Assembly (NCBI GenBank): GCA_000934665.2
Contig: KZ538295.1
Location: 186,001 to 250,000, forward strand
DNA: 64,000 nucleotides
Reading direction: 5' to 3'
Origin: Catajapyx aquilonaris
Lineage: Eukaryota
The translations under genes and the position numbers were made by a program. The number at the start of each line of letters is the position of its first letter. Position 1 is the stretch's first letter. The notes under the pieces were generated by a model. That model saw only the letters and a list, made by a program, of their open reading frames with translations, ran no database searches and was not told where the DNA came from. Of this stretch, positions 7,703 through 31,170 are shown piece by piece.

Positions 7703-7982
7703 GAGGGTTTTGCAGCGGGTGCTCACCTGAGACCGCCACGAGACATTTCCCAGAGCATATATGTGGCGACCATACCGGACTAAGGCTGAACTTTATAGGT
7801 ACGAAAGGGGACGGCTACATTGGGGGGCCCAACATGGCCGCCGGCGGCCATGTTGGGCCAGCATGTAGCCCTCCCCTTTCGTACCAATAAAGTTCAGCCT
7901 TAGTCCGGTAGGGTCGCCACATATATATGCTCTGGGAAATGTCTCGTGGCGGTCTCAGGTGACACCCGCTGCAAAACCCCTC
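7703..7982. mobile_element. Long near-perfect palindrome (~140-bp arms, no loop); probable foldback/MITE
   Basis: Left arm GAGGGTTTTGCAGCGGGTG...CCCAACATGGCCGCC is the reverse complement of right arm GGCGGCCATGTTGGGCC...CACCCGCTGCAAAACCCCTC; centre at 7842/7843; few mismatches; no TSD seen. Confidence 0.75.
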
Positions 7983-9421: not shown

Positions 9422-10560
9422 GGGCAAAAGTGGGCGGAGCATTAGGAGACATGGGCGGGGCCTAGACTGGTGGTGGGCGGAGCTTGTGTTTACTAATGGG
9501 AGTGGCTTAATGGTAGGAGGGGCTTATGCTGACGGTGGGCGGGGCATTAGGAGACATGGGCGGGGCTTAGACTGGTGGTGGGCGGAGCGTGTGTTTAGTA
9601 ATGGGAGGGGCTTAACGGTAGGAGGGGCTTATGCTGACGGTGGGCGGAGCATATGTTGGGGTGGGCGTGGCTTGTTAGCGATTGAGTGGCATAGACTGAA
9701 TGTGGACGGAGCTTGTGTTGGTAATGTTTGTTTGTTGGTTATGCCAAAGCAACTAAGGCTATCTCAGTATCTGGCAATCGTAAACTGTTTTTGGTAGTGG
9801 GAGGAAACGGGAGAACCCCGAGAAAACCCACGCAAACACTGTGAGAACCCATCGAAACTCACGCGGGGATCGAACTCGGGACCTTAGCTAGGTGGAAGGC
9901 TGCGGCGTTATAACCACTACACCACCGTTTCGCCCTTTGTGTTGGTAATGAGAGGGATTCAACGATGGGAAGGTGCTTATGTCGACGGTGGGCGGAGCAT
10001 AGGTTGGGATGGGTGGAGCTTGTGCTGATAATGGGAGGAGCTTAACGATAGGCGGGATCTAGACTGCCGGTGGGTGGAGCATAGTTTGGGATGGGCGGGG
10101 CTTATACTGGCCATGGTGGGGCTTAGACGGGTGGTTGTGTTGGTAATGGGAGGGGTTTAACGATGGGAGTGGGCTTATGCTGACGGTGGGCGGGGCTTAG
10201 ACTGGTGGGCGGAGCTTGTGTTGGTAATGGCAGGCGCTTAACGATATGCTGGGCCTAGCCTTATGGTGGGCGGAGTATAGGTTGGGATGGGCGGGACTTA
10301 TGTTTGTTAATGGGAGTAGCTTAACTATTGGTGGGGATTATCCTGGCGGTGCGGTGGCTGAGCGGTAGGCTGGGATGGGTGGGACTTGTTAGCGATGGGA
10401 GTGAGCTATAATGAAAGTGGGGCCATCTGTTAGTGTTAGATGGTGTTAGGCAATGGGAGGGACTTATGCCGCCAAAGGGAGTGGCTTACGCCGGAAGTGG
10501 GCGGGGCTGACACTGGCAATGGGTGGAGCTTGGGCTGGCAACAGGCGGTGCTTATTCTCC
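9422..10560. repeat. Degenerate G-rich minisatellite with repeated GGTGGGCGG(A/G)GC(T/A)T units, upstream of the ZNF143-like gene
   Basis: Recurrent units such as TGGGCGGAGC, GGGCGGGGCTTAGACTGG and TTGTGTTGGTAATGGGAG; interrupted by a SINE at 9727-9936. Confidence 0.8.
9727..9936 (-). mobile_element. tRNA-derived SINE with V-SINE-like core and 14-bp TSD
   Basis: Minus strand: A-box-like TGGTGTAGTGG, B-box-like GAGTTCGATCCC, core GTTTGCGTGGGTTTTCTCGGGG...TTTCCTCCCA and (CAAA)n tail; flanked by TTGTGTTGGTAATG at 9713-9726 and 9937-9950. Confidence 0.85.
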
Positions 10561-10707
10561 ATACGAGTTTGAACCGGCCGCGGCGTGATCGAGAGGTCTC
10601 TGTCGTGCAGGCCTGCAGCCCAGTGGCGCCCTCAACCTCCCTCCGGCCATCTTGGCATCCCGACCACTTCTCTCCCTTCTCGATGATGCTGGTGGGCTGA
10701 CCAAGGC

Positions 10708-10765
10708 CCCGGTGCCTGCCGGGTAATGTTTCCCGTCATGCCTCCTCCATTGTCATGTCGGGAGC
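10708..10765. promoter_or_regulatory. Cluster of Staf/ZNF143-binding-site (SBS)-like motifs in the 5' region of the ZNF143-like gene
   Basis: TTACCCGGCAGGCACCGGG (minus, 10708-10726) matches 17/19 and TTTCCCGTCATGCCTCCTC (plus, 10729-10747) matches 16/19 positions of the recalled SBS consensus YYWCCCRNMATSCMYYRCR; a weaker third site lies on the minus strand near 10747-10765. Confidence 0.45.
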
Positions 10766-10812
10766 GGGATGAATTCAACTAATGTGGACACCATTGCAGG
10801 TGTGGCCTGGAG

Positions 10813-12453
10813 ATGAGCTCGGTGGAGGAGGAGGAAGAGGACGACACCCACACCCTTCTGGTCCACTCCCTGCCAGGCGGCGACATCGTGCACTTTGACA
10901 GTGAGTGTCGAGTACTATTAACCCCATAAGCAATGTACAAACACACTGCGGTACCCTTGGTACTGATAGAGAGGTTTTCAGCTGACCATCTGCTGGTGTC
11001 GACGGATGATGTCGGGAGCGACCTGGTTATTGGAGGAAGAGTTGCGGTGACTCTGGAGGATGGGACGCAGGCTTTCATCACCGGAGACATTGAAGACGGG
11101 ACTGTGCAGTTGGACGATGGGAGCGTGGAGGTGGAGAAAGAGACGGTGCAGCTTGAAGATGGGTCGTCCTTTTTGAGTCAGGATGTGAAAGGTTTGTTCG
11201 TTTTGCATGTTGTATGAGCCCACACTAATATCCGGACTCTTCAGCCTTTCGCCATGTCCAGCTTGACGATGGCACAACAGTTGCGGTTCCCGACCCTCTG
11301 CTTAACATCACATTTGAGCCGCTTGTGGTGTCAGAGTCGGGTCATGAGCCACTAGAGGATGAGAGCGAGGAAGAAGAGGATGTGGATGAGCCGCCACCCA
11401 TATTTTTACCCAAGAAGCGTAACCAAAAGGCTAATACAAATGAGAAGTCCTTTCAGTGCAAGCATGAGAATTGCGGAAAGCAGTACACCACTCTCAACCA
11501 TCTGAAGGTAAGGCCTGTTCATGAAGTGTTAAGTCTTGTCAACACATTTATGAGTTGCATACAAGTATAATCAGGTGCGGTATTATGTGTTGTCATATTA
11601 ATTAAGTGGACTTGTATTGCAGGTACATGAGCGATTCCATACTGGGGACCGTCCATTCAAGTGTGATGATTGCCATAAGGCGTTCTCCACTGGTTACAGT
11701 CTGAAGGCACATACGCGGACACATACGGGGGAGAAACCGTACAAGTGTCAGGATAATCTCTGTGGGAAGTCCTTCAAGACATCGGGGGACCTGCAGAAAC
11801 ATGTACGCACCCACACAGGAGAAAGGCCGTTTCTTTGCGAAGTTGAAGGGTGCGGACGATCATTCACGACTTCTAACATACGCAAGGTGAAAACGCTGTA
11901 TGCGATCTGACGTTGTGCACTATGTTAGGTGAAATAACGTAGGGACGGATAATTAATAATTTTTCTCTCGCAGGTTCACATGCGTACTCACACTGGTGAG
12001 CGTCCGTACACATGCCCAGAGCCAGGTTGTCGCCGTGCTTTTGCTTCCGCTACCAACTTTAAGAACCACGTTCGCATCCACACTGGAGAGAAACCGTACG
12101 TGTGTACATACAACGGATGTGGGAAGCGGTTCACAGAGTACTCGTCTCTGTACAAACATCACGTGGTGCACACCCAGAACAAGCCGTATGTGTGTGGTTT
12201 ATGTGGACGGTCATATCGGCAGCCGTCAACCCTAAGTGTCCATCTGCGTTGCACCCACGGAGATGAGAGTTTCATGGTGGAGGAAGGGGAAGGAAGTGAG
12301 CCCAGCCTGCAACTGGTCAGCGTCGTTGCAGATCAGGACGTGCTAGCAGCACTGGAGGGAAGGACAGTAGAGGGCGGAGAGACCTCGCAGATTTACATCA
12401 TGACCGATCCGACTCAATTGGTAGAACTGGACATGGGGAGGGACACGCCATGA
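10813..12453 (+). CDS. ZNF143: Zinc finger protein 143/76 (Staf)-like transcription factor, ~434 aa, seven C2H2 fingers
   Basis: Exons 10813-10900, 10982-11191, 11245-11507, 11623-11886, 11974-12453 (GT-AG, phases consistent). N-terminal V(T/Q)LEDG(T/S) repeats typical of ZNF143/76. Fingers include [69 protein letters not shown] and [16 protein letters not shown]. Confidence 0.92.
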
Positions 12454-13773
12454 GATGAAATTGGTTGTGCAAAAGTACATGTAAGAGCATCATGAATCTC
12501 ACCAAATTGTTGTTGTGTTTTTTTCTCTCTGTATTACCGGTACAGAGGCAAAGGGCAGTCATTTAAGTCACTTTAAATTTTTACGTTTGTTGATTTTTCC
12601 CTCCAAAATGGGTGTGGATTTGTGTCACATGATGCGGTAGATGCGAGAAAAAATCATGGTGGTTGCATTATTGCTACTTGTGTTCGACCTCACAGTTGAG
12701 ATTATATGGTGTGGTTACATGCTTGAGACATGGGCACGTTGACGTAGGTGAAACTATGGGCAAGTGTCATCTCAACAGTGTCTCGAATGTGTCTTAAGCG
12801 CACCAATTGAAACGAGAAAAATACCATTCCTACACGTATGCAATCCGAGAAAGTGCTGAGGTGTTTTTGCGAGTAATGCTGTTTTGGGGGATGAAAATAA
12901 TGTGCTTATTACTTTCAAGCGTGCTTGTAACCCAGTTATTGTAGAATATTCTGTAATTAATACCTTCCAGGAAATATTTTCCAGACATTCTGAGTCATTA
13001 AATCAGCACTTGACAGTTACACTATTGTACTTAATGTAATGCATATAAGGGTGATCCAAAAAAAAAAGACTGCATATTTAGCAGTTTTTAAATGAGCAGA
13101 AAATATTCAGTTTATTAATTGAAAGTGCTTTTGCTGTTTTTGTTTGAGTGGGAAAGAGAGAATCTTTTACTATTAAAATCTTGGGCTACACAGTAATGAC
13201 TACAATCGACAGTCAACAATAGTGCATTGAAAATATGAGTTGAAATGTTTTCTATGATTACTTGCTCAAATTTTTGTTGTTGTATGAAGTGTAAGTGAGA
13301 AATACCTTCTGCTTATTGGAAAACAGCTAATTAATCGGAATTTCACCCTGTGTACATGCGGTAGTGTAACTATCCAGTGACATGTCCCATTAGTGTAGTA
13401 TTCATATGTGATTCTAGCAAGATTTTGTGGGTCACGCCTGCCAAAGCTTGCCACAATACTTTCATATGTAAAAAGCAAGATATGTTATTTACCTGTGATG
13501 AGCTGGTTTTGTGTTCATTTTGTTACTGGCTTGAAAACAACTAGAACAACTTCCACGTGAATTTGAGTCTGATTGCATCGATTTATTTATTGAAATTTGT
13601 TGGCTGCATAAGAATGTGTGTGATATGTACAGGTTAAAATATGAGAGATCTATTCACATGGTGTGTTTACTGTCCTAATCCAAGTCCTTTTATTGATTAC
13701 TTAATTACAGAGTACGCCTAACGAGGTAATGCACAGTGCCCGTTGGAACTGCAATGATGCTTCGACGCCAAGT

Positions 13774-15224
13774 TCAATCCAGCCACTCGTTCATGTATTG
13801 GCACTTGTAGGGTGTGACAAGCCCACTCTGACAGCAGTCTTTGATAATGGGGCACATACCGCACGGAAAATACATGAGGCCAGGAGGGGGAAGAAGGCTC
13901 TCAACGGCTCTGTACAGCTTCTGTGTCTTGTCACCACTACCGGTCATAGTCTTCTCCACTTTTCCGTCATACACCAAAGTGTCCAGTATGACCTCAATGT
14001 TATCAAGCGTGAGCTTGATAGTGAACAGCCCCGAGGTGGAGATCCTCTTCCAGATATCCTCCGATGCCATGAAACTCTGCTTCTTCCGCGCAATTGGCCC
14101 AGACTTGGCCCCCGTCGTCTCCCCGCTCGTGGCCTTCTCCAGCTCATCTTGCAAGTACCGGTAACACTGCTGGTTCAGCACATCCACAAACTCAGAGTCA
14201 AACTCCTGGTCCGAATACCACGATCCCCCAGTAATCGACTGATCCGGCTCCAGATCATACAGCATATACACCTTCTGCTTCGGAGCCACAACTGACTTAA
14301 CCGCCTTGATCATATGCTTACCCTCCAGGCTCTTTAACACCTGCAAAAATATAATTAGGTCGCATTAATTAAACACCCGAGACAGATGGGAAAAATCCGC
14401 AAAAAGTGGGTGAAACATTCAGGGACAGTGGGCGGAGCTTAGACTGACAGTGGGTGGATCATCAGTTGGTGTGGGAGGGGCTTCTCCATATGAAACATTT
14501 TATCCAAGTAAACGTTAGTTGTGCCAACAATATATATTAGTTATGTATTTATTAGTTACACTAAATGTAAGGTTAAATATAATATAATTAATAGCCTATA
14601 CCATAGTTATTAGGTTAAATATTAGTTATACCAACAATATATATTAGTTATGTATTTATTAGTTATACTAAATATAAGGTTAAATATAATATAATTAATA
14701 GCCTGTAATATAGTTAATATTAGGTGAAATATTAGTTATACTACATATCAGTTATAGCAATCCTTTGACATTAGTTATGAAAATAATGTATAATGTTGAT
14801 TAATGCATTTGAAGAGCTTGTGAGCAACCTTTGTCAGCTGGGTTGTGACCAAGTTGGACTTGCTCCGTATGTGCCTGATCCATATCCCCTTGTTGCCAGC
14901 GCCTGTGATGATGTCGTACACCAGCTTCTCCTCGGTGTTGGCTCCCTTTATAGCCGTGGCCGCCGGACCTTTGGCTGTGCTGACGGCTCCTCCTCCAACG
15001 ACCGCCCTGGCCAGCTTGTAGAGCAGGCCGCCTCCTTGCTTGTACAGCTCCAGCTTCCCTGCGGCCAGCAGCTTGTTGACGGCAGTTGCCCTCACCGGAG
15101 CTGCCACCCCGTCCAGCTCCTTCACCAGAACCTTGTCCTGGACACCACCCGGCTGCCTCTCCAGCATGTCCAGTATCCTCTTCTCCACCTCACACGAAGA
15201 AGAAGTACTTGCCTCTGCTGCCAT
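13774..15224 (-). CDS. POLR3F: RNA polymerase III subunit RPC6 (RPC34/RPC39), ~320 aa
   Basis: Exons 15224-14829 and 14340-13774 (phase-0 intron). Motifs EEKLVYDIITGAGNKGIWIRHIR, KVYMLYDLEPDQSITGGSWYSDQEFDSEFV and the C-terminal Cys cluster PCGMCPIIKDC...PYKCQYMNEWLD (4Fe-4S motif of RPC6). Confidence 0.95.
14515..14760. repeat. AT-rich tandem duplication (~107-bp period) in the POLR3F intron
   Basis: CCAACAATATATATTAGTTATGTATTTATTAGTTA...TAAGGTTAAATATAATATAATTAATAGCC occurs at ~14524 and ~14631. Confidence 0.8.
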
Positions 15225-15391
15225 ACCCGCTGTACTGTACCAAACGATGCACACGCTGTCTTGCAGTCAACTATCGGACAACTATCGCCATCATTGTGCC
15301 GTTGTCATCATATCACGTGACTAATATGAGATGTCAATAGTAGCCAGAGCGATAGGATCACATTTGGAACGTTCTATCCACAGCTGGAGTT
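15225..15391. promoter_or_regulatory. Putative bidirectional promoter between POLR3F and the MULE/SWIM gene
   Basis: Only 167 bp between divergent ATGs (15224 and 15392); palindromic E-box TCACGTGA at 15313-15320; AGTAGCCAGA at 15339-15348. Confidence 0.65.
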
Positions 15392-18300
15392 ATGTCGGCC
15401 CCTGGTGCTGCCCCTGGGCCGCCCTTGGTGTTCCCGACCGACACCAAGTTGGTGTCGAGCCTGAAGGACGAGGTGGTGCTGAGGTTTGCTGGAAAGACTA
15501 AGGAGGACTTCCAGGTATGGATGAAGGAGTTCCAGGCGTCCAACAAGCTCACGTACAGGATCATGAGAACGCAGAGTAGGAAGAAAGTGCTGTACAAGGT
15601 GAGGAGGAGGACAGAAATTGGGGAAAATTTTGGTGCTGAATTTTGGATTTCTGTTGCAGGCGCACTACCGCTGCCACCGCAACACCTTGCCGAAGAGGCA
15701 CGGAACCGTCAAGCCTCATCCGAAGCACACCGGATGCCCAGCATTGATGCTAGTCACCATCAAAGGAATTGCAAAGAGACCCAGGTTATACCCAGGACAT
15801 TGTAATTTCATTAATATTAATTATAGTTGCATTAATATTGGTTACATTAATTATATTTCATTTAGTTGCATTAATATTGGTTATATTTATTAGGTATATT
15901 AGAGTAGACTAATTTGGGTATCGCCAGGGGAAAAAATACATAAAAGTATGAAAAAATGTCGGTATGTTTTGCAAACGGAGAAATGTACTTTTTTCCAGAA
16001 GACAAACTAAAAATTTGTGGTAAGTTTCATTATTTTGATTCAATATTGAAACTTGCAGTATGTACATTAGTTCATTTAAAACCTCTGAACAGCTCACTGT
16101 TGCGGAATCTAGAACCATGTTAGATTATCTGTGTTTTCCGATTATCTGGCCCGTATAATCGGGAGTAGGGCCTACAGTGTATTTAGTTACATTAGTTATT
16201 ATATTAATTATTAATTTCCAGTAAGCCATAACAATACGTTTAATTACAGGTCTAAAGATGAGTACCTGTTGAAGTATCCGACGAGAATCGTGCTGAAGAA
16301 TCAGCATAATCACAGCATTGATGCGATTGAGAGTGTGAAGCATCGGGATCCGAGCGAGGATGTTAGGAAGAAGTTTGTGGAGCTGTTCAAGGCTGGGTTC
16401 GGTACGACAAGGGCGTTGGAGCTGCACAGGCGGCACTTGATGGAAGAGTATGAGAATTACGCGGAGATTGCACAGGATCGGTTCTTTTGCCCGGATATGT
16501 ACTGGGTTAATCGTTTGCATGGACTGACTGCGGAGGAGTTTGGAGCGTACTCTGCGGATGAAATGATGGCGACTTTGAGGCGCAATGTCAGCGAGATGGA
16601 AGAGAAAGGGGTTCAAATTGTACTGAGAGAAGCTGGGGAGCATTTCACTATCGCTATTTGCACGCCTTTGATGCAACGTGTTCACTCCTTGCTTACTAGT
16701 GGAGAAATTGCCTTTTTGGACAGCTCAAGAACTGTGGATCCATACAACTGCCATGTATTTTTGATAATGGTTGACAGTTGTGTCGGGGGTCTTCCGGTTG
16801 GGGTGCTCATTACGAGTACTGAGGAAGAAGACATGTTGACTAATGCACTTGAAGATTACGTGTCCTTGCTTTCAGAAGAATCATTTGGTGGCCGCGGAAA
16901 AATAGGCCCTGCGGTTTTTCTAACTGATGACTGTGAAAGCGAGAGAAATGCGCTGGCACATTGTTTTCCACAGAGTAACGTCCTGCTTTGTACCTTCCAT
17001 TTTCTTCAGGAAACATGGAAGTGGCTGCGGGATGTAAGCCATGGCGTGGAACATGAATGCCACTATCTTTACTCATGTGTGTCGAGCCTTGTGCAGGCCG
17101 GAACGACGGAGGTGTTTGAAGAATTGCAAAAGGACCTTTTGTTGTTAGCTCTTGAGAAGAGTCCACCGTTTTATGCATTTTTGCTTGCGAATTTTGAGAA
17201 GGCAAATGAATGGGCGATTTGGTTCGCGCACAATGTCAGCACGAGGGGGAAACACATGAAGAGTGTTACGGAAGCCGCGATTCGTGCATTTGAGGATAAG
17301 ATTATGCTAAGGAACAAGGCGTACACTGTTCCGCAGCTGGTCTGTTTCATGGTTGGTGACGTGACGGCATACTATGAAGAGAAGCTGACTGCTGCTGGTG
17401 CCGGAAAATTACATCAGTTCCATCTCTCTCAGTACAAAAGTGAAACTCAGACTCTACAAGATTTGTTTGTTGAGAAACTATCCAACTCTTTGTTCAGTGT
17501 CACATCTGGTGACGATAAGACATGTGTAGTTAATGTGGATTTGGGAACATGCAGTTGTTGTATGGGACAAAATGGTGCGACGTGCAAGCATCAGCATGTA
17601 GTTGCAGTGATGACTTGCACTTGTAATGATAGGACTCCTCGGAGCTCCACAGCCAGAAAGGAACTCTTCTTTGTGGCTTCTGGGAAGAACGAATTACCTG
17701 ACGATTGGGTCGATTCATTACTGTGTAATGATATCTCCAGCATGCAAGCCAACAGCGGTTCAAGCGATTCACCTGATAATCCCACAGGTCAAGTGTCATG
17801 TAAACGAGAAGCTGTAAATGTATTGCAGCGAATAATGAATGATATCGCCACGCGATATGAGAAAGATCCAGTTGCCTTCAATGATGCTGTGTCCGTTTTT
17901 GCAAAAAAGTACTCCAACTTACAGAAAGACTGTGACTTACTGTTGGCCTTGCACACATTTGGAGATTCCAATGCACAGTCCAGTTCATCAGCCAGTGCAC
18001 GAAGCGATCTTCTGCAGGTTATGCCGCAAGCAAGCATCACAGAAGGCAATTCAGAAGCTATTATGATTATATCAGTACCGCAAACTACCAGCAATATGCA
18101 AGTGAATGCAGATAATTTGTCTGCAAATGGAGGGCAGACCAGTCCACAACCTGGAAAGCAGAAAGCAAGGGCTCTTCCGATTGGAAAAAACACCAGCAAA
18201 CTCAACAGTCAAAATGAGTTGGACAATGAACAAGAAGGGACCTTACATAGTACTTCCGAATTAAGTACTGAGCTGGGTAAGGAAGAGCTGATCACGCCAT

Positions 18301-18449
18301 CAAGTCATAAGCTTGGCGTGATGCCAGTGCCTCTTCCGCCTACACAACCAGCAGCTTGTGGCAGTAAGTACGTGAAAATCCTGCCGCGACCTGAAAAGCC
18401 GGTTGTGGGATACCTGATACGGAAAGTTACACTCCCACAGACAAAGTAA
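15392..18449 (+). CDS. MULE (Mutator-like) transposase-derived protein with N-terminal WRKY/GCM1-type Zn finger, DDE domain and SWIM finger, ~843 aa
   Basis: Exons 15392-15598, 15660-15784, 16250-18449 (phases 0 and 2 consistent). YRCHRN..TGCPA..HNH finger; AFLDSS (D1), FLTDD (D2), LLCTFH (CxxH), VTEAAIR (E); SWIM CSCCMGQNGATCKH; AATAAA at 18469-18474. Confidence 0.85.
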
Positions 18450-18532
18450 AATTGTGCAACGAAAGCGGAATAAACTGGGATGACCGTCTGTACCAGTAAA
18501 TGTATTTGTCCGCATTTATTGTAGCAAAAGTG

Positions 18533-20414
18533 TCAGTCCATTAGAGTTTCATAGTACAGATGCATCTGCAGGAGGAATATGGTGTCGTCCAGCTGCAGCT
18601 CAGCAGCGCTCAGTTTGGCCATCCTGGCGCTGACCTTCTCCAGGATGTTCTTCTCAGGTGGGGTTACCATCGATTCAACCTGAAATGGACAATGTGCTTG
18701 GAAAATTGCGCTGAATTAAAGCATAAAAGTACTCACCTCTTGCTGTTGCTCTTCAGTACCAGTCTGCTCCTGTAGATTCATAAGGAGTGTCTCAACCCGC
18801 TGGTTCTTCTCTATCAACCACTGGTGCTCTTGCTTCTCTCTTTCCCTCCGTAGAAGCGAATTAACCATCGCTTTGTAGCATGTTTCCTGTACCATCCGTA
18901 CCGCATCATTAAAGTCCACGTGAAACAGGTATGCCGACTTGTTCATGCCGCCTCCGATGGACTTCCGCAGCTCCTTAAGCTTCAGGAAATTCTCCTTCAG
19001 CAGCTGGTATGTATGCATCTTGGCTTCCTTGGCCGGAATCATTGCAGTTTCCTAGAGGTGACCAGAATTAGTGTTCGTTGTAACTCTGCGAAGATTTATC
19101 CTTACCTGCAGACGTTCCTGCTCTACAAACTTCTTGGCCCTGACCACCCTGAATATCCGAGCCGCCTTGGACCCCATCCGCTCCTGCACCACGCCCTCAA
19201 CTGTTGCCCACGCTAACTGTCGAAACGCAGTCTTCAGATCGACCCTGTACTGTCCACCTCCAGCATCTCCAACCCGTATTATGAAACCCGTCGTATCCTC
19301 TTCGAGAAGTCTCAGGTACTGGTCCAAATACTGGGTCAGATGTGGATATGTAGTTTCTTTTTGCATTGAACTCCGTATCTCCGAGTGCGGTATGGGATTG
19401 GATGATGCAGCCCATGCATCAGTTCGGGTGTACATAAGTCGCAGTAACACACGCATTAGATGCCCAGCGTTTGCGTCCATGCGACGTGTCACGGCCGCCA
19501 CCAGCACGTCGTCTCGAAAGTCTTGGTGGAACCGGTCGTAGTTGATGCGCCAGAATATGGTGTCCTTTGTGCCTGAAAATCCACATAATTTACACAGGAT
19601 TAATTACATAAACATGATCAATTGTATGCCATTTGAACATACTTTTATTCTACACTATTTCTTTAAAAAAAAAGCAGGAGACACTTTCTTTGTAACGGGA
19701 ATTGATAAAAGGTAGCAGTTTATAAGACATTGGTGTGCCAAGTTTCATCACTCTCATAGTAGTCCGGAAGTGGGTTACGTAACCTGGACATACAAACTTT
19801 CCGTTTTCTTTATGGAGAGATTTAATTTCAATTGCACAACTGGTCATACCTGCATTCCTTTCCTTCGCTTTGACACGCTCCTCTATTTGCTTCAAGTCAA
19901 GATCGGGAAGCGCACAATTGTCAAGTTCGGGCGGGCACTTCAGGATATACTTCTCCCGAGCCAGCATTTCAACAGTGTCTTTTAGTGCGGCAACCGGAGT
20001 TGTCTGCATGGCTTCGTTCATGCGACAGGACGCCCTGAAGATGAGCCCCGACGCCGTCTCCTGCCCTCGTCTCTGCAGCTCCTCAAGGATCACCTCCGCA
20101 CCGTCACCATGCACTCGCTTGGCTGCCACTAAGTACTTGCAGTACCGCATGAGGAGTATGGCATGTTCAGGACGGGCGCGGTACAGTTCGGGCAAAGGCT
20201 GCTCGGGCGAAGACTGCTCGTTTTTGACTATGTTATGCTGCATGAGTGTAGCTAACGCCTGCCTGGTCTTGTCCAGAGGCTGCTTCGACGTGGTGCTGAC
20301 CGAGTACACAGTCTGTGGTCCCCATTTAATCAGACACGAGGCCACAGCGGACACAATGGGTCCAAACGCCTCTCCAATCAACAACCCACACAAATCGCCA
20401 TGCAAGGTCGACAT
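18533..20414 (-). CDS. POLR3C: RNA polymerase III subunit RPC3 (RPC62/C82), ~497 aa
   Basis: Exons 20414-19850, 19572-19106, 19051-18737, 18679-18533 (phases consistent). Motifs ALATLMQHNIV, WRINYDRFHQDFRD, GDAGGGQYRV, VQERMGSKAARIFR, AMIPAKEAK and ELQLDDTIFLL; minus-strand AATAAA at 18515-18520. Confidence 0.93.
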
Positions 20415-20446
20415 CTCTCGCAGCTGACTGTAATATAGGAAAATCA

Positions 20447-21210
20447 TACTTGTAATTCAGGAATAGTCATACAAGTACTTGTAGGTAATACAGTAATGAC
20501 CATACAAGTACTTGTAAGTAATACAGGAATGATCATACAAGTACTTCTACTTACACAAGTACCTGTAAGTAATACAGGAATGATCATGCAAGTACTTACT
20601 ATAATTACACACGTACTTGTAAGTAATACCTTGGTAATACAGGAATGATCATACAAGTACTTCTACTTACACAAGTACCTGTAAGTAATACAGGAATGAT
20701 CATACAAGTACTTCTACTTACACAAGTACCTGTAAGTAATACAGGAATGATCATGCAAGTACTTACTATAATTACACACGTACTTGTACGTAATACCTTG
20801 GTAATACAGGAATGATCATACAAGTACTTCTACTTACACAAGTACCTGTAAGTAATACAGGAATGATCATACAAGTACTTCTACTCACACAAGTACCTGT
20901 AAGTAATACAGGAATGATCATGCAAGTACTTACTATAATTACACACGTACTTGTAAGTAATACCTTGGTAATACAGGAATGATCATGCAAGTACTTACTA
21001 TAATTACACAAGTACTTGTAAGTAATACAGGAATGATCATGCAAGTACTTGTAATTACAGTAAAAAATTATACAAGTACTTATAAGTACCGGTAATGCAG
21101 GAATAATACAAGACTACAAGTAGGCCTACTTGTAAGTATTACATGAATAATCATACACGTATTTGTAATGCAGGAATAGTGATACTTGTAAGTTATGCAA
21201 GAATAATCAT
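20447..21210. repeat. Higher-order tandem repeat (51- and 65-bp subunits, ~167-bp period) in the probable 5'UTR intron of POLR3C
   Basis: Core CAAGTAC(T/C)TGTAAGTAATACAGGAATGATCAT repeated; identical spurious ORFs are offset by 167 bp (20656 and 20823); edges degenerate. Confidence 0.9.
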
Positions 21211-21244
21211 ACTCTAAATACAGTGCACGGTACATGAAACGCAC

Positions 21245-21600
21245 CTAGTTTTCAGCTTAAAAAATAATGAAAATCACGTCAAAAGCTGCAAAATGGTCAA
21301 CGAAGGCTGCCATGTTGGATTAACAAGTGAGGATCGACGCAGAGTAGCCAGATGCAACTTTCGAACGCTGGGGCCCGGATTCAGCAAGTAGGCAAAGTTT
21401 GTACGAATAATTAATTTATGCAGTTAATATCAGGACTAATTAAGTGTTGGCAGGTACTTTTGATTGCAATTAGTGCGTGTGTTTTAATGGGGTAGTGTGT
21501 TGTGGATGCGGCGACCTTGTCCGAGGTCCCCGCCCCCTCCAACAGTCCAAGTGCGCACGCGCGTCGACGTATTTTGCAAATGGCGGCCTGAAAGCCGGGC
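21245..21600. promoter_or_regulatory. Putative divergent promoter region for POLR3C and the alpha-adaptin gene
   Basis: Minus-strand donor-like AG|GTGCGT near 21244; plus-strand donor-like CAG|GTACTT near 21453; YY1-like CAACATGGC (minus, ~21309-21317) and AAATGGCGGC (~21578-21587); CpG-rich. Confidence 0.4.
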
Positions 21601-23546: not shown

Positions 23547-23734
23547 CACTGTAAAGCGCAAAACATTAAAAGAGCATCACTGGTGAGTCTCGCATGGATC
23601 GTCAATTTTTAATGCTGTTGTAATGCTTTTTTGTTGCTAAAAAGCATCACAGGAGCATTAGAAGAGCATTAAAAATTGATGTTCCATGAGAGTCTCACCA
23701 GTGAAGCGCTTTTAATGTTTTGCGGTTTACAGTG
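23547..23734. mobile_element. Palindromic MITE with CACTG...CAGTG termini (CMC/CACTA-like ends)
   Basis: CACTGTAAAGCGCAAAACATTAAAAGAGCATCACTGGTGAG pairs with CTCACCAGTGAAGCGCTTTTAATGTTTTGCGGTTTACAGTG; inverted arms ~85 bp; no clear TSD. Confidence 0.7.
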
Positions 23735-24936: not shown

Positions 24937-27900
24937 ATGCCTGCCGTCAGAGGAGATGGAATGCGCGGGCTGGCCGTCTTCATATCCGACATTCGAAATT
25001 GTGAGTACCGGATGCTTAATGAACATCTGAATTATTTGTCTAACACTCGCTGTCTACCCAAAATGTAGGCAAAAGCAAAGAAGCGGAAATCAAGAGGATA
25101 AATAAAGAGCTGGCCAACATTAGAAGCAAGTTCAAAGGTGATAAAACTCTGGATGGGTACCAGAAGAAGAAGTACGTCTGCAAGCTCCTCTTCATCTTTC
25201 TGCTTGGTCACGACATTGACTTTGGTCACATGGAAGCTGTCAATCTCCTGTCTTCTAACAAGTACACCGAGAAACAAATAGTACGTGCAGAGTATTCGGG
25301 TTGACCTCGTTTTTGCCTGCCATTGCTGATCTCTTAACCTGGAATGTTCTTGTTTTAGGGCTACTTGTTCATATCTGTGCTTGTCAATACAAACAGTGAC
25401 CTTATCAAGCTTATTATCCAAAGCATCAAGAATGATCTGTCCTCTAGGTGAGGAATTTTGGGTTGATTTTTATTTTTTACGACAGATTTTCTGTGGAGGG
25501 CGATAATGAAATGTGTTGATTTCGTTGCAGGAACCCGATCCATGTGAACCTGTCCTTGCAGTGTATTGCGAATATTGGCAGCAAGGATATGGCCGAGTCG
25601 TTTGGCAATGACATTCCAAAGCTACTGGTTTCTGGGTAAGTTTCATTGCTATAGTCGAATCCAAGGTGATTGAAGAAGTCAAAAAGTTCTGTACTGAAAT
25701 AAGCTGCCATTTCATGACTCTTTTTACCAATTTTGAAGTTGTTTCCACTCGATTCAATGTGCGTCAATTTTTCAATCGTCATCTATTTTTCCATAGTGAC
25801 ACCATTGATGTTGTGAAGCAGTCGGCAGCTCTGTGCCTCCTCCGACTCTTCCGCACCCTTCCTGACATCATCCCATCTGGCGAGTGGACCTCCCGCATAA
25901 TTCACCTGCTGAATGACCAACACATGGGAGTTGTCACTGCCGCAACAAGCCTCATTGACGCCCTGGTGAAGAAAAGTCCGGAGGAGTATAAGGGCTGCGT
26001 TAGTCTAGCTGTCTCCAGACTCAGTCGAGTAAGTTGCTAATTTAGCTAGTTGTCCCATTAAACTTCATGCTGATGTATCTTGATGTGTCTAATCTTCATT
26101 TTGTTCCAGATTGTTACTGCCAGCTACACAGATTTGCAAGACTACACGTACTACTTCGTCCCTGCCCCGTGGCTGTCTGTCAAGTTGCTACGCCTTCTGC
26201 AAAACTACACCCCACCCGGTGAGTGCAAAATGATGTCATTGCCTGTAGGTTCGGTCGTCTCATTATTCCCCTGTTGGTCGCTGGGTGTAGAAGACCCGGG
26301 GGTGCGCGGACGGCTGAACGAGTGCCTGGAGACAATCCTCAATAAGGCACAGGAGCCGCCCAAGTCCAAGAAGGTGCAGCACTCCAACGCGAAGAACGCG
26401 GTGCTCTTCGAGGCCATCAGCCTCATAATCCACAACGACAGCGAACCCAACCTCCTGGTGAGAGCCTGCAACCAACTGGGCCAGTTCCTGTCGCATCGCG
26501 AGACCAATCTTAGGTACCTGGCTCTCGAGTCCATGTGTCTGCTCGCCACCTCAGAGTTCTCACACGAGGCCGTCAAGAAGCATCAGGAAACCGTCATAAA
26601 TGCCCTTAAGGTAGGATTTATTTTTAAAGCCTTGAAGCATTATTATAAGGGCAATAGGCTCAAGTTGTTAAATTGCGTCTGCTGAGAAAGTGTAATTCAG
26701 TGAGAAGCACTTGTTATTAAGCTTATTAAATAATCAGCATGTGGATACTCAATATTTACAAGTGCGGTGCACGTGTTGCGACCAAATTGTTTGAGTACCG
26801 AGTCACTTTCCTGTTCTTATCTGTTGCGATAACAAGGGAAGTGATGATTTCTGCGAACTGTTTCAGTTTCTAATAATGTTTTGCAATCTTTAACCTGACA
26901 GATAACTACATCGTCTTCCTTAACCTGTCCTGATTACAGCTGTTGAAAGGGGCTGAAATATATTGATGATGGCTGGTTGTTATTTTTCCTTCCCACATTT
27001 TTTGCTAATGACGATTAATCTTCTCCACAGACGGAGCGAGATGTGTCGGTTCGCCAACGAGCGGTGGATCTGTTGTATGCAATGTGCGACAAGACCAATG
27101 CCGAAGAGATTGTGCAGGAAATGCTTAACTATCTGGAGACTGCCGATTATTCCATCCGAGAGGAAATGGTGAGTAGTGAAGATCTCGTTTTTTTTGCCTT
27201 GACCAAGTGCATGAAGGTTAAGATAAGCGTTGTCTTAGCTTTGGGTTAGGGACATGGCCTATTATCACTTCCTGTGGTGTTGCCACATTGTGGTATATCA
27301 ACTTGAGTAATGTCTTTTTCTTGCTATGGTGTAAGATTATTTTTTTCTATGCTTTGATTAAAAGTAATCTTAAGCTGAGGAAAATTCCTTCATTTATTTG
27401 GAAGTCATGGTAGACATTCGTATATCATTCGTTAATTATGCAGATAAATGTTTTTGTGGTCTGCTGCTTGTCATATTGCTTAAAACGTTAGTTCGTGGTA
27501 TTTACTTGACTGTGTATCACTTGACAGGTGCTGAAGGTGGCCATTCTGGCGGAGAAGTATGCAACGGACTACACGTGGTATGTGGATGTGATCCTGAACC
27601 TGATCCGCATAGCTGGTGATTACGTGTCGGAAGAAGTGTGGTACAGAGTCATCCAGATTGTGATCAACCGGGAGGAAGTGCAGGGCTATGCGGCCAAGAC
27701 TGTGTTTGAGGCTCTGCAGGCGCCCGCTTGCCACGAAAACATGGTCAAAGTCGGCGGGTATATCCTAGGGGAGTTTGGGAATCTCATTGCCGGGGATCAG
27801 AGGTCATCTCCATCTGTGCAGTTCCAGCTGCTGCATTCCAAGGTAAAGCTGCTGTAAGATTTAAACGTGCACAGAATGAGTACTAATCGCATCTCCTATT

Positions 27901-30900
27901 CCAGTATCACCTGTGCTCTCCGATGACACGGGCTCTCCTGCTCTCTACGTACATTAAGTTTGTGAACCTGTTCCCCGAAATAAAGGGGCAGGTACAGGAC
28001 ATTTTCAAGCAGGACAACAACCTCCGAAGTGCTGACGCAGAACTGCAGCAGAGAGCCTCGGAGTACCTCCAGCTATCTATCGTCACCTCGACGGACGTGC
28101 TTGCAACCGTGCTCGAGGAGATGCCACCCTTCCCGGAGAGAGAGAGCTCCATCCTGGCCATACTCAAGAAGAAGAAACCTGGGAGGCTGCCCGAAGCTGC
28201 AGAGCCTAAGGAGAGGAAGAGTCCGGCCGCTGTAAGTACTTATGTTTACAAAAGACATGTGCTGAAACTATTCATAGTTTTTACCAGTTTATCATGGGAG
28301 TGTTGGCTGCCATTGACAGAAAATGTGTTTTAGAAGGTCGCAGAGATAACAATTTTTACAGCTTAAACGTTATTATGTTTCGCAACTGTTATGTTAATCA
28401 CCTGGACAGCATTTAATCCAGTTTTCAGGGTATGCTTTACTAAAGGTGGTCGCCACGACTGGTATCTTTATGAGGCACTTGGCAAGCCCATTAAATGCTT
28501 TCAAGTGCTCCTTACTTGGTTTCTCAATAATAAAAAATTTGATGTGCTACTAATAATGATTGCATTAGGCTACAAAATATCTGCCCCGTCTTCGCCCTCC
28601 CCAACACTTTATTTTCTTTGCTTAAGGGCCCTCTCATACTGAAGCGGCGCGGAGCCGTTCGGCGCCGCCCCAATCGGCGTGGTAAGGTAGTTATCTGTTC
28701 ATGGCACTTGCTAAATTTTGGACGTTGTTAGCACCAGGCAGAGCAGTGGAGAGGTGGAGGAGCTTTGTTGCTATTGCTGCTTCTGCGTGACCATGGGTGA
28801 AGTGATTACTTTGGGTGCATGCCCTCTGACTATGCCAATTTGCAGTTGGGGCAGTTTGATGCAGCCTAACAATGACTTGTTGCTGATTGTTACCGGACCA
28901 TTTGCTTGTGCATGTCAAGTGAGTTCATTTGATGACCTAACACATCGTTGACTAATGACTCTTGTCGGACTTGACGTGACGTGACATTCGTCTCATGTCC
29001 ATTGTCCGTTTTGGCTTTTGCCATGTGAAAGGGGATGCCAAAAAAGCTTTTTTTTATTTTTTATTTTTCTGAATGTGCAGTTGGAACTAAAATGATTCTG
29101 TGGCATCAGCCGCACCACTTCAGTGTGATTGGGCTCTAACAAGGCACTTCCCTTGCTCGTCAGAAACCATTGGGATTTGATGAACTCTGTGCCTTAAAAA
29201 ATAATGTCTTTCTTTGTTATCAATGAAAACGGGGATTTGTTGGGGACTCGTAATTATTGTTAACAATTAAGCCTGTTTTGTATTTCAGACTTTTCAAAGT
29301 TTAGCATGCGGATGTAATTCTTACGAGGATTCAGTTGCAAGCCTGTTACGATAAGCCTTCGACCAGGTATTTGACATCACTAGTAAGGGCAGACTGCAGG
29401 ATGTTAGAACTGCTTTGTTTTCCTTAGGGCTAAATTAGTTATTACACAACTGTCTTGAACTAACATTTCTTCTTGTGACATCAACATATTGTGGCGTTAG
29501 TGACTTTTGGACAATTTCGAGTGCTGCTGTTTTGAGTGCACTTACGTGGATGAAAATGTGACACTTGCCTCCAGGTGATGAACCACAATGCGGAGCACAA
29601 TGCGGCACCAAAACCAACGGCCAACAGTGTGTCGGCGGACCTTCTCGGTCTCTCCACACCGCCTGCCTCCCAGCCCAACGCGGCGTCCAACACAGGGGTG
29701 CTTGTGGACGTCCTCGGAGATCTGTACAACTCAACCCCTCACACAAACAACATCCAGCAGCAGGTCAACAACAACATGTCCGGATCCATGGAGCCAACTG
29801 ATAATGTCAAGAAGTCAGTATTTTAAAAGAAATGTTTTGGTACCATGTTTGAGTGTGAATGGTTTTGCCCTTGTCCTTAAATTGCGGATGTATGATGCAT
29901 TTGTCCGCCAATAGTGTTGATACGGCTTCTGTTTATGCCCTAGTGGTACTTGAGTGAAGCTATTCAAAGCCCATTTCCCACTTACACGATAACATTATGG
30001 TCAATTGAGAAGTGATCACTGGTCGAGCTCATAAAATATTGTGGCCATGATAAAATTTATACATTGTAATTATTTCGCTTTACATTTGCAGATTTGTGTG
30101 TAAGAACAATGGCGTCTTGTTTGAGAATGACCTCATCCAGATCGGAGTGAAATCTGAGTTCCGCCAGAACTTGGGAAGAGTAGGGCTGTTTTACGGGAAC
30201 AAGACGTCATTTCCTCTTCAGGTATGGGACTTTGTGAACTAGTTTAACTTGTTAGAATGGCCGTTTCTAATACCACCAATTTATTTTTTTTGACCACATC
30301 ATGTAGAATTTCAATCCTACAATAAGCTGTCCTGGCGAATTGGCATCGAAGGTTAATGTTCAAGTGAAGCCAGTGGAGCCTGTGATAGAAGCTGGAGCTC
30401 AGGTGCAGCAGATGGTCAATGCAGAGTGTGTTGAAGACTTCCTGGGTAAGCTAGAAGAAATCCATATACAATAATTGCAAAATTGAGAATAAAAATGCTC
30501 TTACATCTTTCAACTGATCTGCAATTCCCCTCTCTGTTATTCTAGAGATGCCAAGCCTGACTGTCACATTCCTGTACAACAATGTGCAGCAGAGACTGAA
30601 CCTCAAGCTCCCCTTAACGGTGAACAAGTTCATCGAGCCGACAGAGATGAACTCTGAGGCATTCTTTGCCAGGTGGAAGAACCTCAGCGGGTACGTCACA
30701 TGTCCGGATGCTTCCCAGGCGAGGTGCTTACGGTCTGAGAATTCCTGTTTCAGGCCTCAGCAGGAAGCCCAGAAGATATTCCGGTGCACCCACGCGATGG
30801 ACATGACTGCGACCAAGACCAAGTTGCTAGGTTTCGGGATGCAACTGATGGAAAACATCGATCCCAACCCAGAGAACTTCGTTTCTGCAGGCATAGTGCA

Positions 30901-31170
30901 CACGAGGCTGCATCAAGTTGGGTGTCTATTAAGGCTTGAACCCAACAGACAAGCACAGGTCAGTTGGAAAAACAAATTAACGCTATGTCCATGAGAAAAA
31001 ATGGTCGATCAAATTCAGACTGTCAAGGGTATGATTTTAGAACCTTACAAATTATTGTGGCAGGGAAACAATACAAGTTGTCTCTTTTCCAGATGTATCG
31101 CCTGACTATAAGAGCCAGCAAGGACTCTGTTTCAAAGCAACTCTGTGACCTCCTCTGCGAGCAGATGTAG
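24937..31170 (+). CDS. AP2A: AP-2 adaptor complex subunit alpha (alpha-adaptin), ~948 aa
   Basis: 16 exons: 24937-25000, 25069-25280, 25359-25447, 25531-25635, 25797-26028, 26110-26218, 26291-26610, 27031-27168, 27528-27842, 27905-28231, 29575-29813, 30092-30221, 30307-30445, 30546-30690, 30754-30958, 31093-31170 (phases consistent). Starts [22 protein letters not shown]; appendage [24 protein letters not shown]; ends [20 protein letters not shown]. Confidence 0.97.
28627..28686 (+). CDS. Candidate 60-nt in-frame cassette exon in the alpha-adaptin hinge ([20 protein letters not shown])
   Basis: Polypyrimidine tract plus TAAG acceptor, AAG|GTAGTT donor, phase 0-0 matching the flanking exons, no stop codon, GC-rich island in an AT-rich intron. 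Confidence 0.45.

Follow-up and report, generated by a model that had tools for sequence, protein, structure and literature searches.

Four genes lie on alternating strands (+ - + -) in a block of ~10.5 kb of Catajapyx aquilonaris contig KZ538295.1: a Staf/ZNF143-like gene, POLR3F (encoding RPC6), a MULE/SWIM transposase-like gene and POLR3C (encoding RPC3). The block lies within the 64,000-nucleotide stretch of DNA that we analyzed, hereafter the window, in which position 10813 is the ATG of the Staf-like gene and 20414 that of POLR3C. A preliminary description had placed the Staf-like gene, POLR3F and POLR3C within 10 kb of each other, and all three are found there, intact and spliced. Gene models built on GT-AG introns give proteins of 434 aa (Staf-like), 320 aa (POLR3F) and 497 aa (POLR3C). 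The features of the locus are as follows.

9451..10554, no strand: array of GGGCGGAGCTTA-like repeats of ~22 nt, resembling GC boxes, immediately 5′ of the Staf-like gene (family D3, 17 copies)
10813..12453, plus strand: predicted Staf/ZNF143/ZNF76-family gene, 434 aa (GT-AG model, Pfam fingers, X5 RNA)
10813-10900, 10982-11191, 11245-11507, 11623-11886, 11974-12453, plus strand: the five coding exons of the Staf-like gene, whose four introns are skipped by an X5 contig
12454..13773, no strand: interval between the convergent stops of the Staf-like gene and POLR3F, entirely RNA-covered
13774..15224, minus strand: POLR3F/RPC6, 320 aa, two coding exons (15224-14829, 14340-13774), intron skipped in X5
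15225..15391, no strand: head-to-head interval of 167 bp between the ATGs of POLR3F and the transposase-like gene, with a CACGTG box at 15314
15392..18449, plus strand: MULE/SWIM transposase-like gene, ~843 aa (exons 15392-15598, 15660-15784, 16250-18449)
18533..20414, minus strand: POLR3C/RPC3, 497 aa (Pfam, human RPC3 match, GT-AG model)
20414-19850, 19572-19106, 19051-18737, 18679-18533, minus strand: the four coding exons of POLR3C, whose introns of 277, 54 and 57 nt are all three skipped in X5
20428..21244, minus strand: 817-nt intron in the POLR3C 5′UTR (X5 joint 20427-21245, CT..AC)
21245..21315, minus strand: minimum extent of the POLR3C 5′UTR exon (X5 contig 11, 2329 nt, continues 71 nt past the joint, 56 of them within the matched stretch)

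Transcription units of the block

Transcript structure was read from X5, one RNA-derived run available as contigs, the depth of which cannot rank the genes. All predicted coding introns of the Staf-like gene, POLR3F and POLR3C (8/8) are skipped in X5 contigs, as are the plus-strand intron 15599-15659 and the POLR3C 5′UTR intron. Each of the 10 joints ends GT..AG or CT..AC, and none of them is present in the DNA run X1. Every gene of the block is expressed in this single RNA-derived sample.

The strand order implies four separate transcription units with at least three promoter regions, and sequence and X5 together place 5′ ends near 10.8 kb, at 15.2-15.4 kb and at or beyond 21.3 kb. X5 contigs connect genes solely through convergent 3′ ends. 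With alternating strands and separate promoters, the three Pol III-related genes form no operon and no polycistron, and strands, 5′ ends and RNA contigs reveal neither a common promoter nor a common transcript that would mark them as a cluster.

The Staf-like gene had been described as convergent with POLR3F, which we confirm (plus versus minus strand). The RNA coverage of the whole interval between their stops indicates that the two 3′UTRs abut or overlap; X5 contig 9 runs unbroken from 11972 to 14338 and bears plus-strand introns of the Staf-like gene as well as the POLR3F minus-strand intron. Poly(A) signals in the interval lie at 12997 and 13172 on the plus strand and at 13111, 13582, 13586 and 13689 on the minus strand. 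POLR3C and POLR3F had been called a tandem pair: both are indeed on the minus strand, but the transposase-like gene (15392-18449) stands between them, so they are not adjacent.

The POLR3C 5′UTR exon, reaching at least to 21315, puts the POLR3C promoter at or beyond that position, ~6 kb from the POLR3F promoter. A tandem array of 51/116/167 nt fills the 5′UTR intron (TRF 20504-21059; families D1, D2, D4, D5). POLR3F and POLR3C are otherwise intron-poor, with one and three coding introns, respectively. Plus-strand spliced RNA begins just past the 167-bp head-to-head interval (intron 15599-15659), and this interval probably acts as a bidirectional promoter for POLR3F and the transposase-like gene.

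No recognizable domains occur in the 10.8 kb upstream or the 3.6 kb downstream of the block, which therefore looks like a discrete island. Neither a tRNA nor any Rfam family was found in the 64-kb window, which contains no Pol III-transcribed gene. The GGGCGGAGCTTA-like array upstream of the Staf-like gene includes TRF rows 9430-9667 and 10451-10493, and the POLR3F intron contains two more GGGCGGAGCTTA-like repeats (14406-14463).

Identity of the encoded proteins

The two exons of POLR3F match the Pfam profile RNA_pol_Rpc34 (length 332) at positions 7-123 (E 4.7e-17) and 118-332 (E 3.6e-51), and exon 2 matches residues 127-315 of human RPC6 (chain 7a6h_P) with an E-value of 6.2e-62. Within exon 2, C160, C163, C169 and C180 fall in invariant columns of a 23-sequence alignment (A1); in human RPC6, these four C-terminal cysteines are the iron-sulphur cluster ligands. 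The RPC6 encoded here has a very long branch, at 1.2 changes per site, which points to a genome that evolves fast and has probably undergone much rearrangement. Successive exons of POLR3C carry HTH_9 (4.2e-14), RNA_pol_Rpc82 (3e-26), POLR3C_WHD (1e-11 and 6.4e-08) and RPC3_helical (5.4e-05) in the order expected of RPC3, and exon 2 matches human RPC3 (chain 2xub_A) with an E-value of 6.1e-35.

Judged from its similarity to arthropod proteins and ESM-Atlas clusters, the gene at 10813..12453 belongs to the Staf/ZNF143/ZNF76 family. Pfam identifies seven tandem C2H2 fingers in its product. Residues 131-373 of a tick protein (P0098) are colinear with exons 3, 4 and 5, with identities of 39, 71 and 77%, respectively. 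Exons 4 and 5 are also colinear with P0107, a protein from a planthopper that bears the name 'zinc finger protein 76' (72 and 66% identity), and with P0111 within the same 66-72% range, whereas generic poly-finger proteins peak at 56% identity to these fingers. Four Staf-type proteins occur among the 120 matches listed. The nearest named Atlas cluster is 'zinc finger protein 143' (0.96), and a ZNF76 cluster is also among the nearest named. Four N-terminal h-x-L-x-D-G-S/T repeats can be read in exons 2-3, and similar h-x-L-x-D-G-S/T-x-A-F/Y motifs occur in P0098 and P0107; BLAST of exon 2 gave no match among the 120 listed proteins. In vertebrate Staf, 15-residue N-terminal repeats are activation motifs, and the protein recognizes an 18-bp Staf binding site and drives transcription from snRNA-type and tRNA-Sec promoters. 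Staf-family genes with both a seven-finger array and N-terminal repeats would thus appear to occur outside vertebrates.

A fourth gene, absent from the preliminary description, is the transposase-like one. Its ORF matches Pfam MULE (6.3e-08) and ZSWIM1-3_RNaseH-like, and a SWIM-like CxC...CxH motif can be read in it. Intron 1 (15599-15659) is confirmed in X5, and RNA contigs lie inside the ORF; the putative intron 2 (15785-16249) has GT-AG ends and restores the reading frame. P0241 is colinear with exons 1, 2 and 3 (at 67-116, 119-153 and 165-316), P0243 also with all three and P0242 with exons 2 and 3. By DNA depth the gene is single-copy (31.5, equal to flanking unique genes), and it shares a contig with POLR3C. 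A repeat search found no inverted repeats bracketing 15.2-18.6 kb or the whole block, and we rejected an active MULE transposon given the lack of terminal inverted repeats and the single copy by depth. The gene's relatives are 27-35% identical and patchily distributed; together with the missing terminal repeats and single copy, this points neither to an active transposon nor to a domesticated orthologue that is conserved. It may be regarded as a candidate domesticated MULE transposase with a promoter region common to POLR3F.

Co-regulation and conservation of the linkage

A scan of the window for the Staf-site consensus, with as many as 3 mismatches allowed, gave two matches where 1.97 were expected, which is the level of chance, and the ACTAYRNNNCCCR motif gave 0 against 0.54 expected; no Staf-site signal was detected in the neighboring promoters. 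The three promoter regions have no k-mers in common at 7, 8 or 9 nt (shuffle means 0.74, 0.02 and 0.003). POLR3F's promoter partner is the unrelated transposase-like gene, and no Pol III-related pair uses a common promoter. ZNF143 has 3122 promoter binding events in human (PMC3627581), which makes it a general promoter factor rather than a Pol III-specific one, weakens the label of a 'module' and renders a link to any housekeeping neighbor unremarkable. Its ChIP peaks include POLR3A, POLR3B and POLR3E in human and Polr3b and Polr3f in mouse (PMC3627581 Tables S4, S5).

Conservation of the linkage was sought in metagenomic loci, in a published survey and in protein matches. By tblastn, which may miss a diverged RPC3, none of 80 metagenomic POLR3F loci contains POLR3C. 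These loci come from unknown, probably distant eukaryotes; 22 of them span 5 kb or more and 11 span 10 kb or more. Eight loci (seven of at least 10 kb and one of 8.8 kb), drawn from the 15 non-duplicate loci that reach 6 kb, were examined with Pfam: their 140 ORFs contain no Rpc82/HTH_9 domain, and 5/8 have unrelated neighbors. In a 64-species gene-pair survey of 2010 (PMC2871058), the partners listed for RPC3 are QCR2 (in 15 fungi) and RNF115 (in 8 vertebrates), and those for RPC6 are C20orf12 and a kinase; an RPC3-RPC6 pair is absent from this survey, which included few invertebrates and scored only immediately adjacent pairs. All RPC3, RPC6, Rpc34 and Rpc82 rows of its supplementary files 4 and 6 were covered. 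The statement that the two genes lie apart in human agrees with their different, unrelated neighbors there, RNF115 and C20orf12 (PMC2871058 supplementary file 6). In the planthopper Nilaparvata lugens, the only species found, by eye, in both the Staf-like and the RPC6 match lists, the contigs that encode the ZNF76-like protein and RPC6 differ in length (99.1 Mb and 52.9 Mb, respectively). The extra parts of two over-long RPC3 gene models (P0269, P0398) contain no Rpc34 domain and no fingers. The comparative evidence on linkage is thin.

Under random gene order, three of ~40 Pol III-machinery genes would fall within four consecutive genes with p ~0.0005 (20,000 genes) to 0.0013 (12,000 genes) per genome. 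With 500-2000 complexes, the same calculation predicts 0.6-4 same-complex pairs in each genome, and the Pol III triple was singled out post hoc in the course of a very large scan.

Interpretation and comparison with known systems

We favor, at a probability of roughly 0.6, the view that the block is a compact island, with four ordinary Pol II genes transcribed independently of one another and a linkage that is likely neutral and lineage-specific. Rearrangement and compaction in a fast-evolving, intron-poor genome would have brought the three Pol III-related genes together. Each gene gives rise to its own spliced mRNA, with the two convergent pairs ending in overlap or abutment; POLR3F and the transposase-like gene have the 167-bp interval in common, and POLR3C starts ~6 kb off behind its 5′UTR intron. 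The RPC3 and RPC6 products would join the Pol III-specific heterotrimer, as their orthologues are established to do, and the Staf-like product would act as a general promoter-binding activator, also for snRNA-type promoters. The linkage would probably be no selected, co-regulated module. The data establish the identities, exon structures and strands of the genes, their separate 5′ ends and their expression in one sample, whereas the neutrality of the linkage and the bidirectional use of the promoter are inferred. As it stands, the locus offers normal POLR3C, POLR3F and Staf-family orthologues in an under-sampled animal genome.

The preliminary description had instead suggested a possible functional, co-regulated cluster, from premises that hold: the three genes are not paralogues, and within the Pol III heterotrimer RPC3 directly partners RPC6, both proteins being present as chains in 7a6h, a human Pol III entry. 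Selection would then have kept the genes in a common chromatin domain, possibly with the Staf/RPC6 3′ overlap, so as to balance expression. The a priori rarity of the triple fits this, as do the partnership of RPC3 and RPC6 in one subcomplex, the expression of the whole block in one sample, mammalian ZNF143 at several POLR3 subunit promoters and a background statement in PMC2871058 that the subunits of stable complexes are encoded by genes that cluster above expectation. We nevertheless think a selected cluster quite improbable: strands alternate over three separate promoter regions, an unrelated gene is interleaved, Staf-site motifs do not exceed chance, ZNF143 is a factor of thousands of promoters, conservation was not found in the metagenomic loci, the 64-species survey or N. 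lugens, and the triple was a post hoc choice. Altogether, the testable evidence speaks weakly against co-regulation. More doubtful still is a clade-conserved 'Pol III island' in one chromatin domain, where the 3′ overlap would couple Staf and RPC6 levels and a domesticated MULE would have been recruited to the bidirectional RPC6 promoter. Conservation and co-regulation of the linkage, if demonstrated, would provide a rare case among animals of clustered transcription-machine genes together with one of their activators, and a handle on how Pol III subunit stoichiometry is set.

The block might also be a functionless relic of an ancestral chromosome or micro-syntenic block, unsplit here and dispersed in vertebrates and others. 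Nothing supports this directly; the intact, expressed state of all genes is compatible with it, and human ZNF76 (6p21) and POLR3C (1q21) map to regions assigned to the MHC paralogy group, which would fit a Staf gene and POLR3C on one ancestral chromosome. It is unlikely, if somewhat less so than a selected cluster, given the different lengths of the two planthopper contigs, the survey of 64 eukaryotes, in which RPC3 and RPC6 do not form a conserved pair, the lack of POLR3C in the metagenomic loci, and the long RPC6 branch. A false join of POLR3F and POLR3C at a high-copy repeat near 15990-16060 is what the X1 DNA contigs could suggest, since they break there with an overlap of only 29 nt (14636-16097, 16069-20533), depth jumps to ~700 and no RNA contig is reported to link transposase-like exons 2 and 3. 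Yet consecutive in-frame parts of one gene lie on either side, colinear with the relatives described above and joined by a frame-restoring GT-AG intron; moreover, the Staf-like gene and POLR3F exon 2 share a single DNA contig, as do the transposase-like 3′ part and POLR3C. Such an artefact is very improbable.

POLR3F and POLR3C have the domain content of their human counterparts and clear sequence similarity to them, with the four C-terminal cysteines retained in RPC6. The human genes are on chromosomes 1 and 20, whereas here they are 3.3 kb apart on one strand. The sole POLR3F intron lies 16 codons upstream of that in metagenomic animal-like loci (n=3). The seven fingers of the Staf-like protein match those of arthropod proteins, one of them named ZNF76, one by one (66-77% identity), but the protein is shorter than the representative of the Atlas ZNF143 cluster (434 aa versus 577 aa), and its DNA-binding specificity and Pol III-promoter role are putative. 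The transposase-like protein resembles MULE transposases and their domesticated derivatives of the FAR1/FHY3 and ZSWIM1/3 types in its MULE core, its ZSWIM1-3 RNaseH-like match and an N-terminal part colinear with relatives; it differs in that its gene is single-copy by depth, spliced, expressed and wedged between two housekeeping genes, with no terminal inverted repeats.

Eukaryotes have conserved neighbor pairs of genes for functionally linked proteins, such as RPABC2-TFIIIA and RAD16-RAD7 in fungi (PMC2871058). The present locus resembles them in that neighbors act in one process, and a conserved divergent pair of a Pol subunit and a Pol III factor exists among the fungal ones. Those pairs are kept across 11-15 species and are mostly divergent with a common promoter, whereas the Pol III-related trio is linked in one genome with no promoter common to any two of its genes. 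In vertebrates, RPC3-RNF115 and RPC6-C20orf12 are spaced head-to-head by 99 bp and 357 bp (PMC2871058 supplementary file 6), and here, too, POLR3F stands head-to-head with an unrelated gene.

Gene models and transcripts of the block

Genes were found from stop-to-stop ORFs and Pfam scans, and their models were completed by splice sites read in the sequence. The preliminary description had located three genes related to RNA polymerase III (Pol III), namely a Staf-like zinc-finger gene, POLR3F (RPC6) and POLR3C (RPC3), within 10813-20414. This location is borne out by the ORFs, Pfam matches, splice models and RNA contigs, and the block ends, 10813 and 20414, are the start codons of the zinc-finger gene and POLR3C. 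The trio is present as described, but the three-gene picture is incomplete. A plus-strand intron at 15599-15659, seen in contigs of the public run X5, reveals a fourth, transposase-like gene that starts 167 bp from the POLR3F ATG, so the block holds four genes in alternating orientation (+ - + -).

Genes of the block (window positions, exons in transcript order)
10813-10900, 10982-11191, 11245-11507, 11623-11886, 11974-12453; plus strand; zinc-finger gene, 5 exons, 434 aa
15224-14829, 14340-13774; minus strand; POLR3F/RPC6, 2 exons, 320 aa
15392-15598, 15660-15784, 16250-18449; plus strand; transposase-like gene, 3 exons, ~843 aa
20414-19850, 19572-19106, 19051-18737, 18679-18533; minus strand; POLR3C/RPC3, 4 coding exons, 497 aa

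All introns of the trio models are GT-AG. Five public runs cover the stretch: four DNA runs of one sample, which may be the source, plus X5, which is of undeclared kind. Compared with the window over 10300-21300, X5 contigs skip 8/8 predicted coding introns of the trio, with ends GT..AG or CT..AC, and none of these spliced joints occurs in the independent DNA run X1. Therefore, X5 is RNA-derived and the gene models stand.

The genes in 13774-20414 are intron-poor, with very short introns of 54, 57 and 61 nt. POLR3F has just one intron, 488 nt long and containing a tandem duplication of 107 nt. Relative to the intron of three animal-like RPC6 loci from metagenomes (L025, L031 and L045), it is shifted upstream by 16 codons, which suggests that introns were lost and gained in this lineage.

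Beyond the block, the only recognizable genes in the window are the following two.

Neighboring genes (window positions)
25044-30991; plus strand; AP-2 alpha-adaptin gene, Adaptin_N and Alpha_adaptin_C exons
34146-34565; minus strand; exon with TNFR cysteine-rich repeat

Long, near-perfect, MITE-like hairpins flank the gene block at 7723-7962 and 23547-23734; their arms are 43 and 64 nt at 95-98% complementarity and 92 nt at 86%.

Identity of the four genes

The genes of the block are ordinary orthologs. For POLR3F, the Pfam RNA_pol_Rpc34 match spans both exons, the comparison with human RPC6 (7a6h_P) gives E 6.2e-62, and its four C-terminal cysteines are conserved without change across an alignment of 23 sequences. 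POLR3C carries HTH_9, RNA_pol_Rpc82, POLR3C_WHD and RPC3 helical hairpin domains (Pfam) and matches human RPC3 (2xub_A) at E 6.1e-35. In a search of 5.8 billion proteins, the closest relatives of the window RPC6 are only 58% identical (insects ~57%, molluscs 52-54%, vertebrates ~50%), and in the RPC6 tree it forms a long branch of 1.2 changes per site without a supported position. The source animal therefore has no close relative in the protein database.

The zinc-finger protein has seven C2H2 fingers. A PDB search for a ZNF143 structure returned generic zinc-finger proteins only, and the protein search with exon 5 was dominated by poly-finger proteins. When the 120 matches listed were re-ranked by single-segment identity, four arthropod proteins came out on top. 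Exons 3, 4 and 5 are colinear with the tick protein P0098 (residues 131-187, 188-277 and 278-373) at 39, 71 and 77% identity, and exons 4 and 5 match the planthopper protein P0107 ("zinc finger protein 76") at 72 and 66%; among the 120 matches, no other finger protein exceeds 56%. Four N-terminal h-x-L-x-D-G-S/T repeats were read in exons 2-3, and such repeats also occur in the tick and planthopper proteins. The nearest named cluster in ESM-Atlas, at 0.96, is "zinc finger protein 143", and several ZNF76 clusters come next. Based on these sequence comparisons, we accept the gene as a member of the Staf/ZNF143/ZNF76 family. The planthopper ZNF76-like proteins carry Pfam family PF26176.

The transposase-like gene lies head-to-head with POLR3F (167 bp) and tail-to-tail with POLR3C (83 bp between stop codons). 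Its intron 2 was placed solely by frame and GT-AG. The protein has a MULE core with a ZSWIM1-3 RNaseH-like match (Pfam), and a SWIM-type motif was read in the ORF. Ten relatives, 27-35% identical, are scattered, with brittle star, sea urchin, thrips and coral among them. The gene is spliced and covered by X5 RNA contigs and is single-copy, with a DNA depth of 31.5, the same as for POLR3C, which shares its DNA contig. It is either a domesticated transposase, for which it is a candidate, or a lone immobile copy. No inverted repeats bracket this gene or the whole block, and on this ground capture of the block by a Pack-MULE or giant transposon was rejected.

Transcription and promoter regions

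The preliminary description had proposed that the trio may be a functional, co-regulated cluster. Given the + - + - order, there is no common transcript, and no promoter is common to any two of the trio; the probable promoter partner of POLR3F is the transposase-like gene. An X5 joint places an 817-nt 5′UTR intron of POLR3C at 20428-21244, and the 5′UTR exon extends to at least 21315, so the POLR3C and POLR3F promoters are ~6 kb apart. A tandem array with periods of 51, 116 and 167 nt (20431-21212) fills this intron. Trans-splicing or an operon was also considered and rejected: the AG just 5′ of the POLR3C ATG serves as acceptor for the ordinary 817-nt intron, and X5 contigs have no spliced-leader-like loose ends at the listed gene 5′ ends.

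One X5 contig connects the spliced zinc-finger gene with spliced POLR3F, unbroken through 11972-14338, and another is unbroken from 17782 past the POLR3C stop. This means that, in both convergent pairs, the genes touch or overlap at their 3′ ends; between the zinc-finger gene and POLR3F, poly(A) signals lie at 12997 and 13172 on the plus strand and at 13111, 13582, 13586 and 13689 on the minus strand.

Motif tests for co-regulation were negative. Scans for Staf sites and M4-type motifs gave no excess over chance: the Staf binding-site consensus has two sites at ≤3 mismatches against 1.97 expected, and the ACTAYRNNNCCCR motif had no match. No 7-, 8- or 9-mer is common to all three promoter regions, and a single 10-mer is common to those of POLR3F and POLR3C (~0.26 expected). 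No tRNA, U6, 5S or other Rfam family was found within the 64-kb window.

A CACGTG box lies at 15314 in the POLR3F/transposase head-to-head interval. The words GCCGCCATTTGC and GCGCGTGCGCA (21540-21580, minus strand), 5′ of the POLR3C 5′UTR exon, are presumably similar to motifs of the YY1 and NRF1 types found in housekeeping promoters. A ~22-nt GGGCGGAGCTTA-like (GC-box-like) unit occurs in 17 copies, 15 arrayed directly 5′ of the Staf-like gene (9451-10554) and two in the POLR3F intron (14406-14463).

Conservation and origin of the linkage

Scanning metagenomes for RPC6 yielded 80 loci, probably from distant eukaryotes, 22 of them at least 5 kb and 11 at least 10 kb long. POLR3C (three largest exons, tblastn, even at E 5) had no match in 80/80, and the only zinc-finger match, at L025, is a generic poly-finger gene (26-35% identity). 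Once near-identical duplicates were removed, 15 loci of 6 kb or more were left, and Pfam was run on 140 ORFs of eight, seven of them 10 kb or longer and the eighth 8.8 kb. These ORFs hold no RPC3 domain, and recognizable neighbors of RPC6 appear in five of the eight loci: acyl-CoA dehydrogenase and a kinase; WD40, M16 peptidase and an AAA protein; poly-C2H2; CAD, PIG-V and poly(A) polymerase; and LETM1.

Among the matches listed, Nilaparvata lugens was the only species seen, by eye, with both a Staf-like and an RPC6 entry; its ZNF76-like protein comes from a contig of 99.1 Mb and its RPC6 from one of 52.9 Mb. Among 150 RPC3 representatives, two gene models are over-long, and their extra parts hold a kinase or nothing recognizable, with no RPC6 and no fingers. 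In a survey of conserved neighboring pairs in 64 eukaryotes (PMC2871058), we considered all RPC3, RPC6, Rpc34 and Rpc82 rows of supplementary files 4 and 6. There, RPC3 is paired with QCR2 in 15 fungi or with RNF115 in 8 vertebrates, RPC6 with C20orf12 in vertebrates or with a kinase in 2 protists, and RPC7 with MBLAC2; these rows hold no RPC3-RPC6 pair in a 2010 survey that is poor in invertebrates and covers direct neighbors only. Literature searches gave no report of POLR3C-POLR3F-Staf linkage and nothing on POLR3F with "microsynteny"; one disease review mentions POLR3C, POLR3F and ZNF143 together. We note that the negatives on conserved linkage from the metagenomic loci, N. lugens, the RPC3 gene models and the survey are weak.

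We considered whether a mis-join at a repeat links POLR3F to POLR3C. The independent DNA contigs do break near 15990-16060, where a high-copy repeat lies (depth ~700, 29-nt overlap), but transposase-like exons 1, 2 and 3 are colinear with the relative P0241 (67-116, 119-153 and 165-316) and likewise with P0243, as are exons 2-3 with P0242. Colinear exons across the repeat make the join credible, and a mis-join is highly improbable. This short repeat, in transposase-like intron 2, and another short one at 19723-19756 in POLR3C intron 1 (DNA word depth ~245) stand out from flanks at a depth of 31-35, and contig ends with differing loose ends are numerous at both.

For random gene order and an estimated 40 Pol III-machinery genes, three such genes fall within four consecutive in 0.05% (20,000 genes) to 0.13% (12,000 genes) of orders, and two of RPC3/6/7 fall within three consecutive genes in 0.07-0.09%. 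Such linkage is rare, had the hypothesis been stated in advance; it was picked post hoc out of a very large scan, and the same arithmetic gives 0.6-4 expected same-complex neighbor pairs per genome over 500-2000 complexes. We regard a selected gene cluster as improbable, and an old linkage kept as an unselected relic as rather unlikely. The most likely reading, with a probability of about 0.6, is that the linkage would be a neutral, lineage-specific juxtaposition inside a compact gene island.

The third member, of the ZNF143 type, is not Pol III-specific: ZNF143 is active at promoters of both Pol II and Pol III, and its binding events at promoters number 3122 in human cells (PMC3627581). In the ChIP tables of that study, POLR3C and POLR3F are absent from human Table S4, which has peaks at POLR3A, POLR3B and POLR3E, and mouse Table S5 has peaks at Polr3b and Polr3f. 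The link between ZNF143 and Pol III subunit genes in mammals is real.
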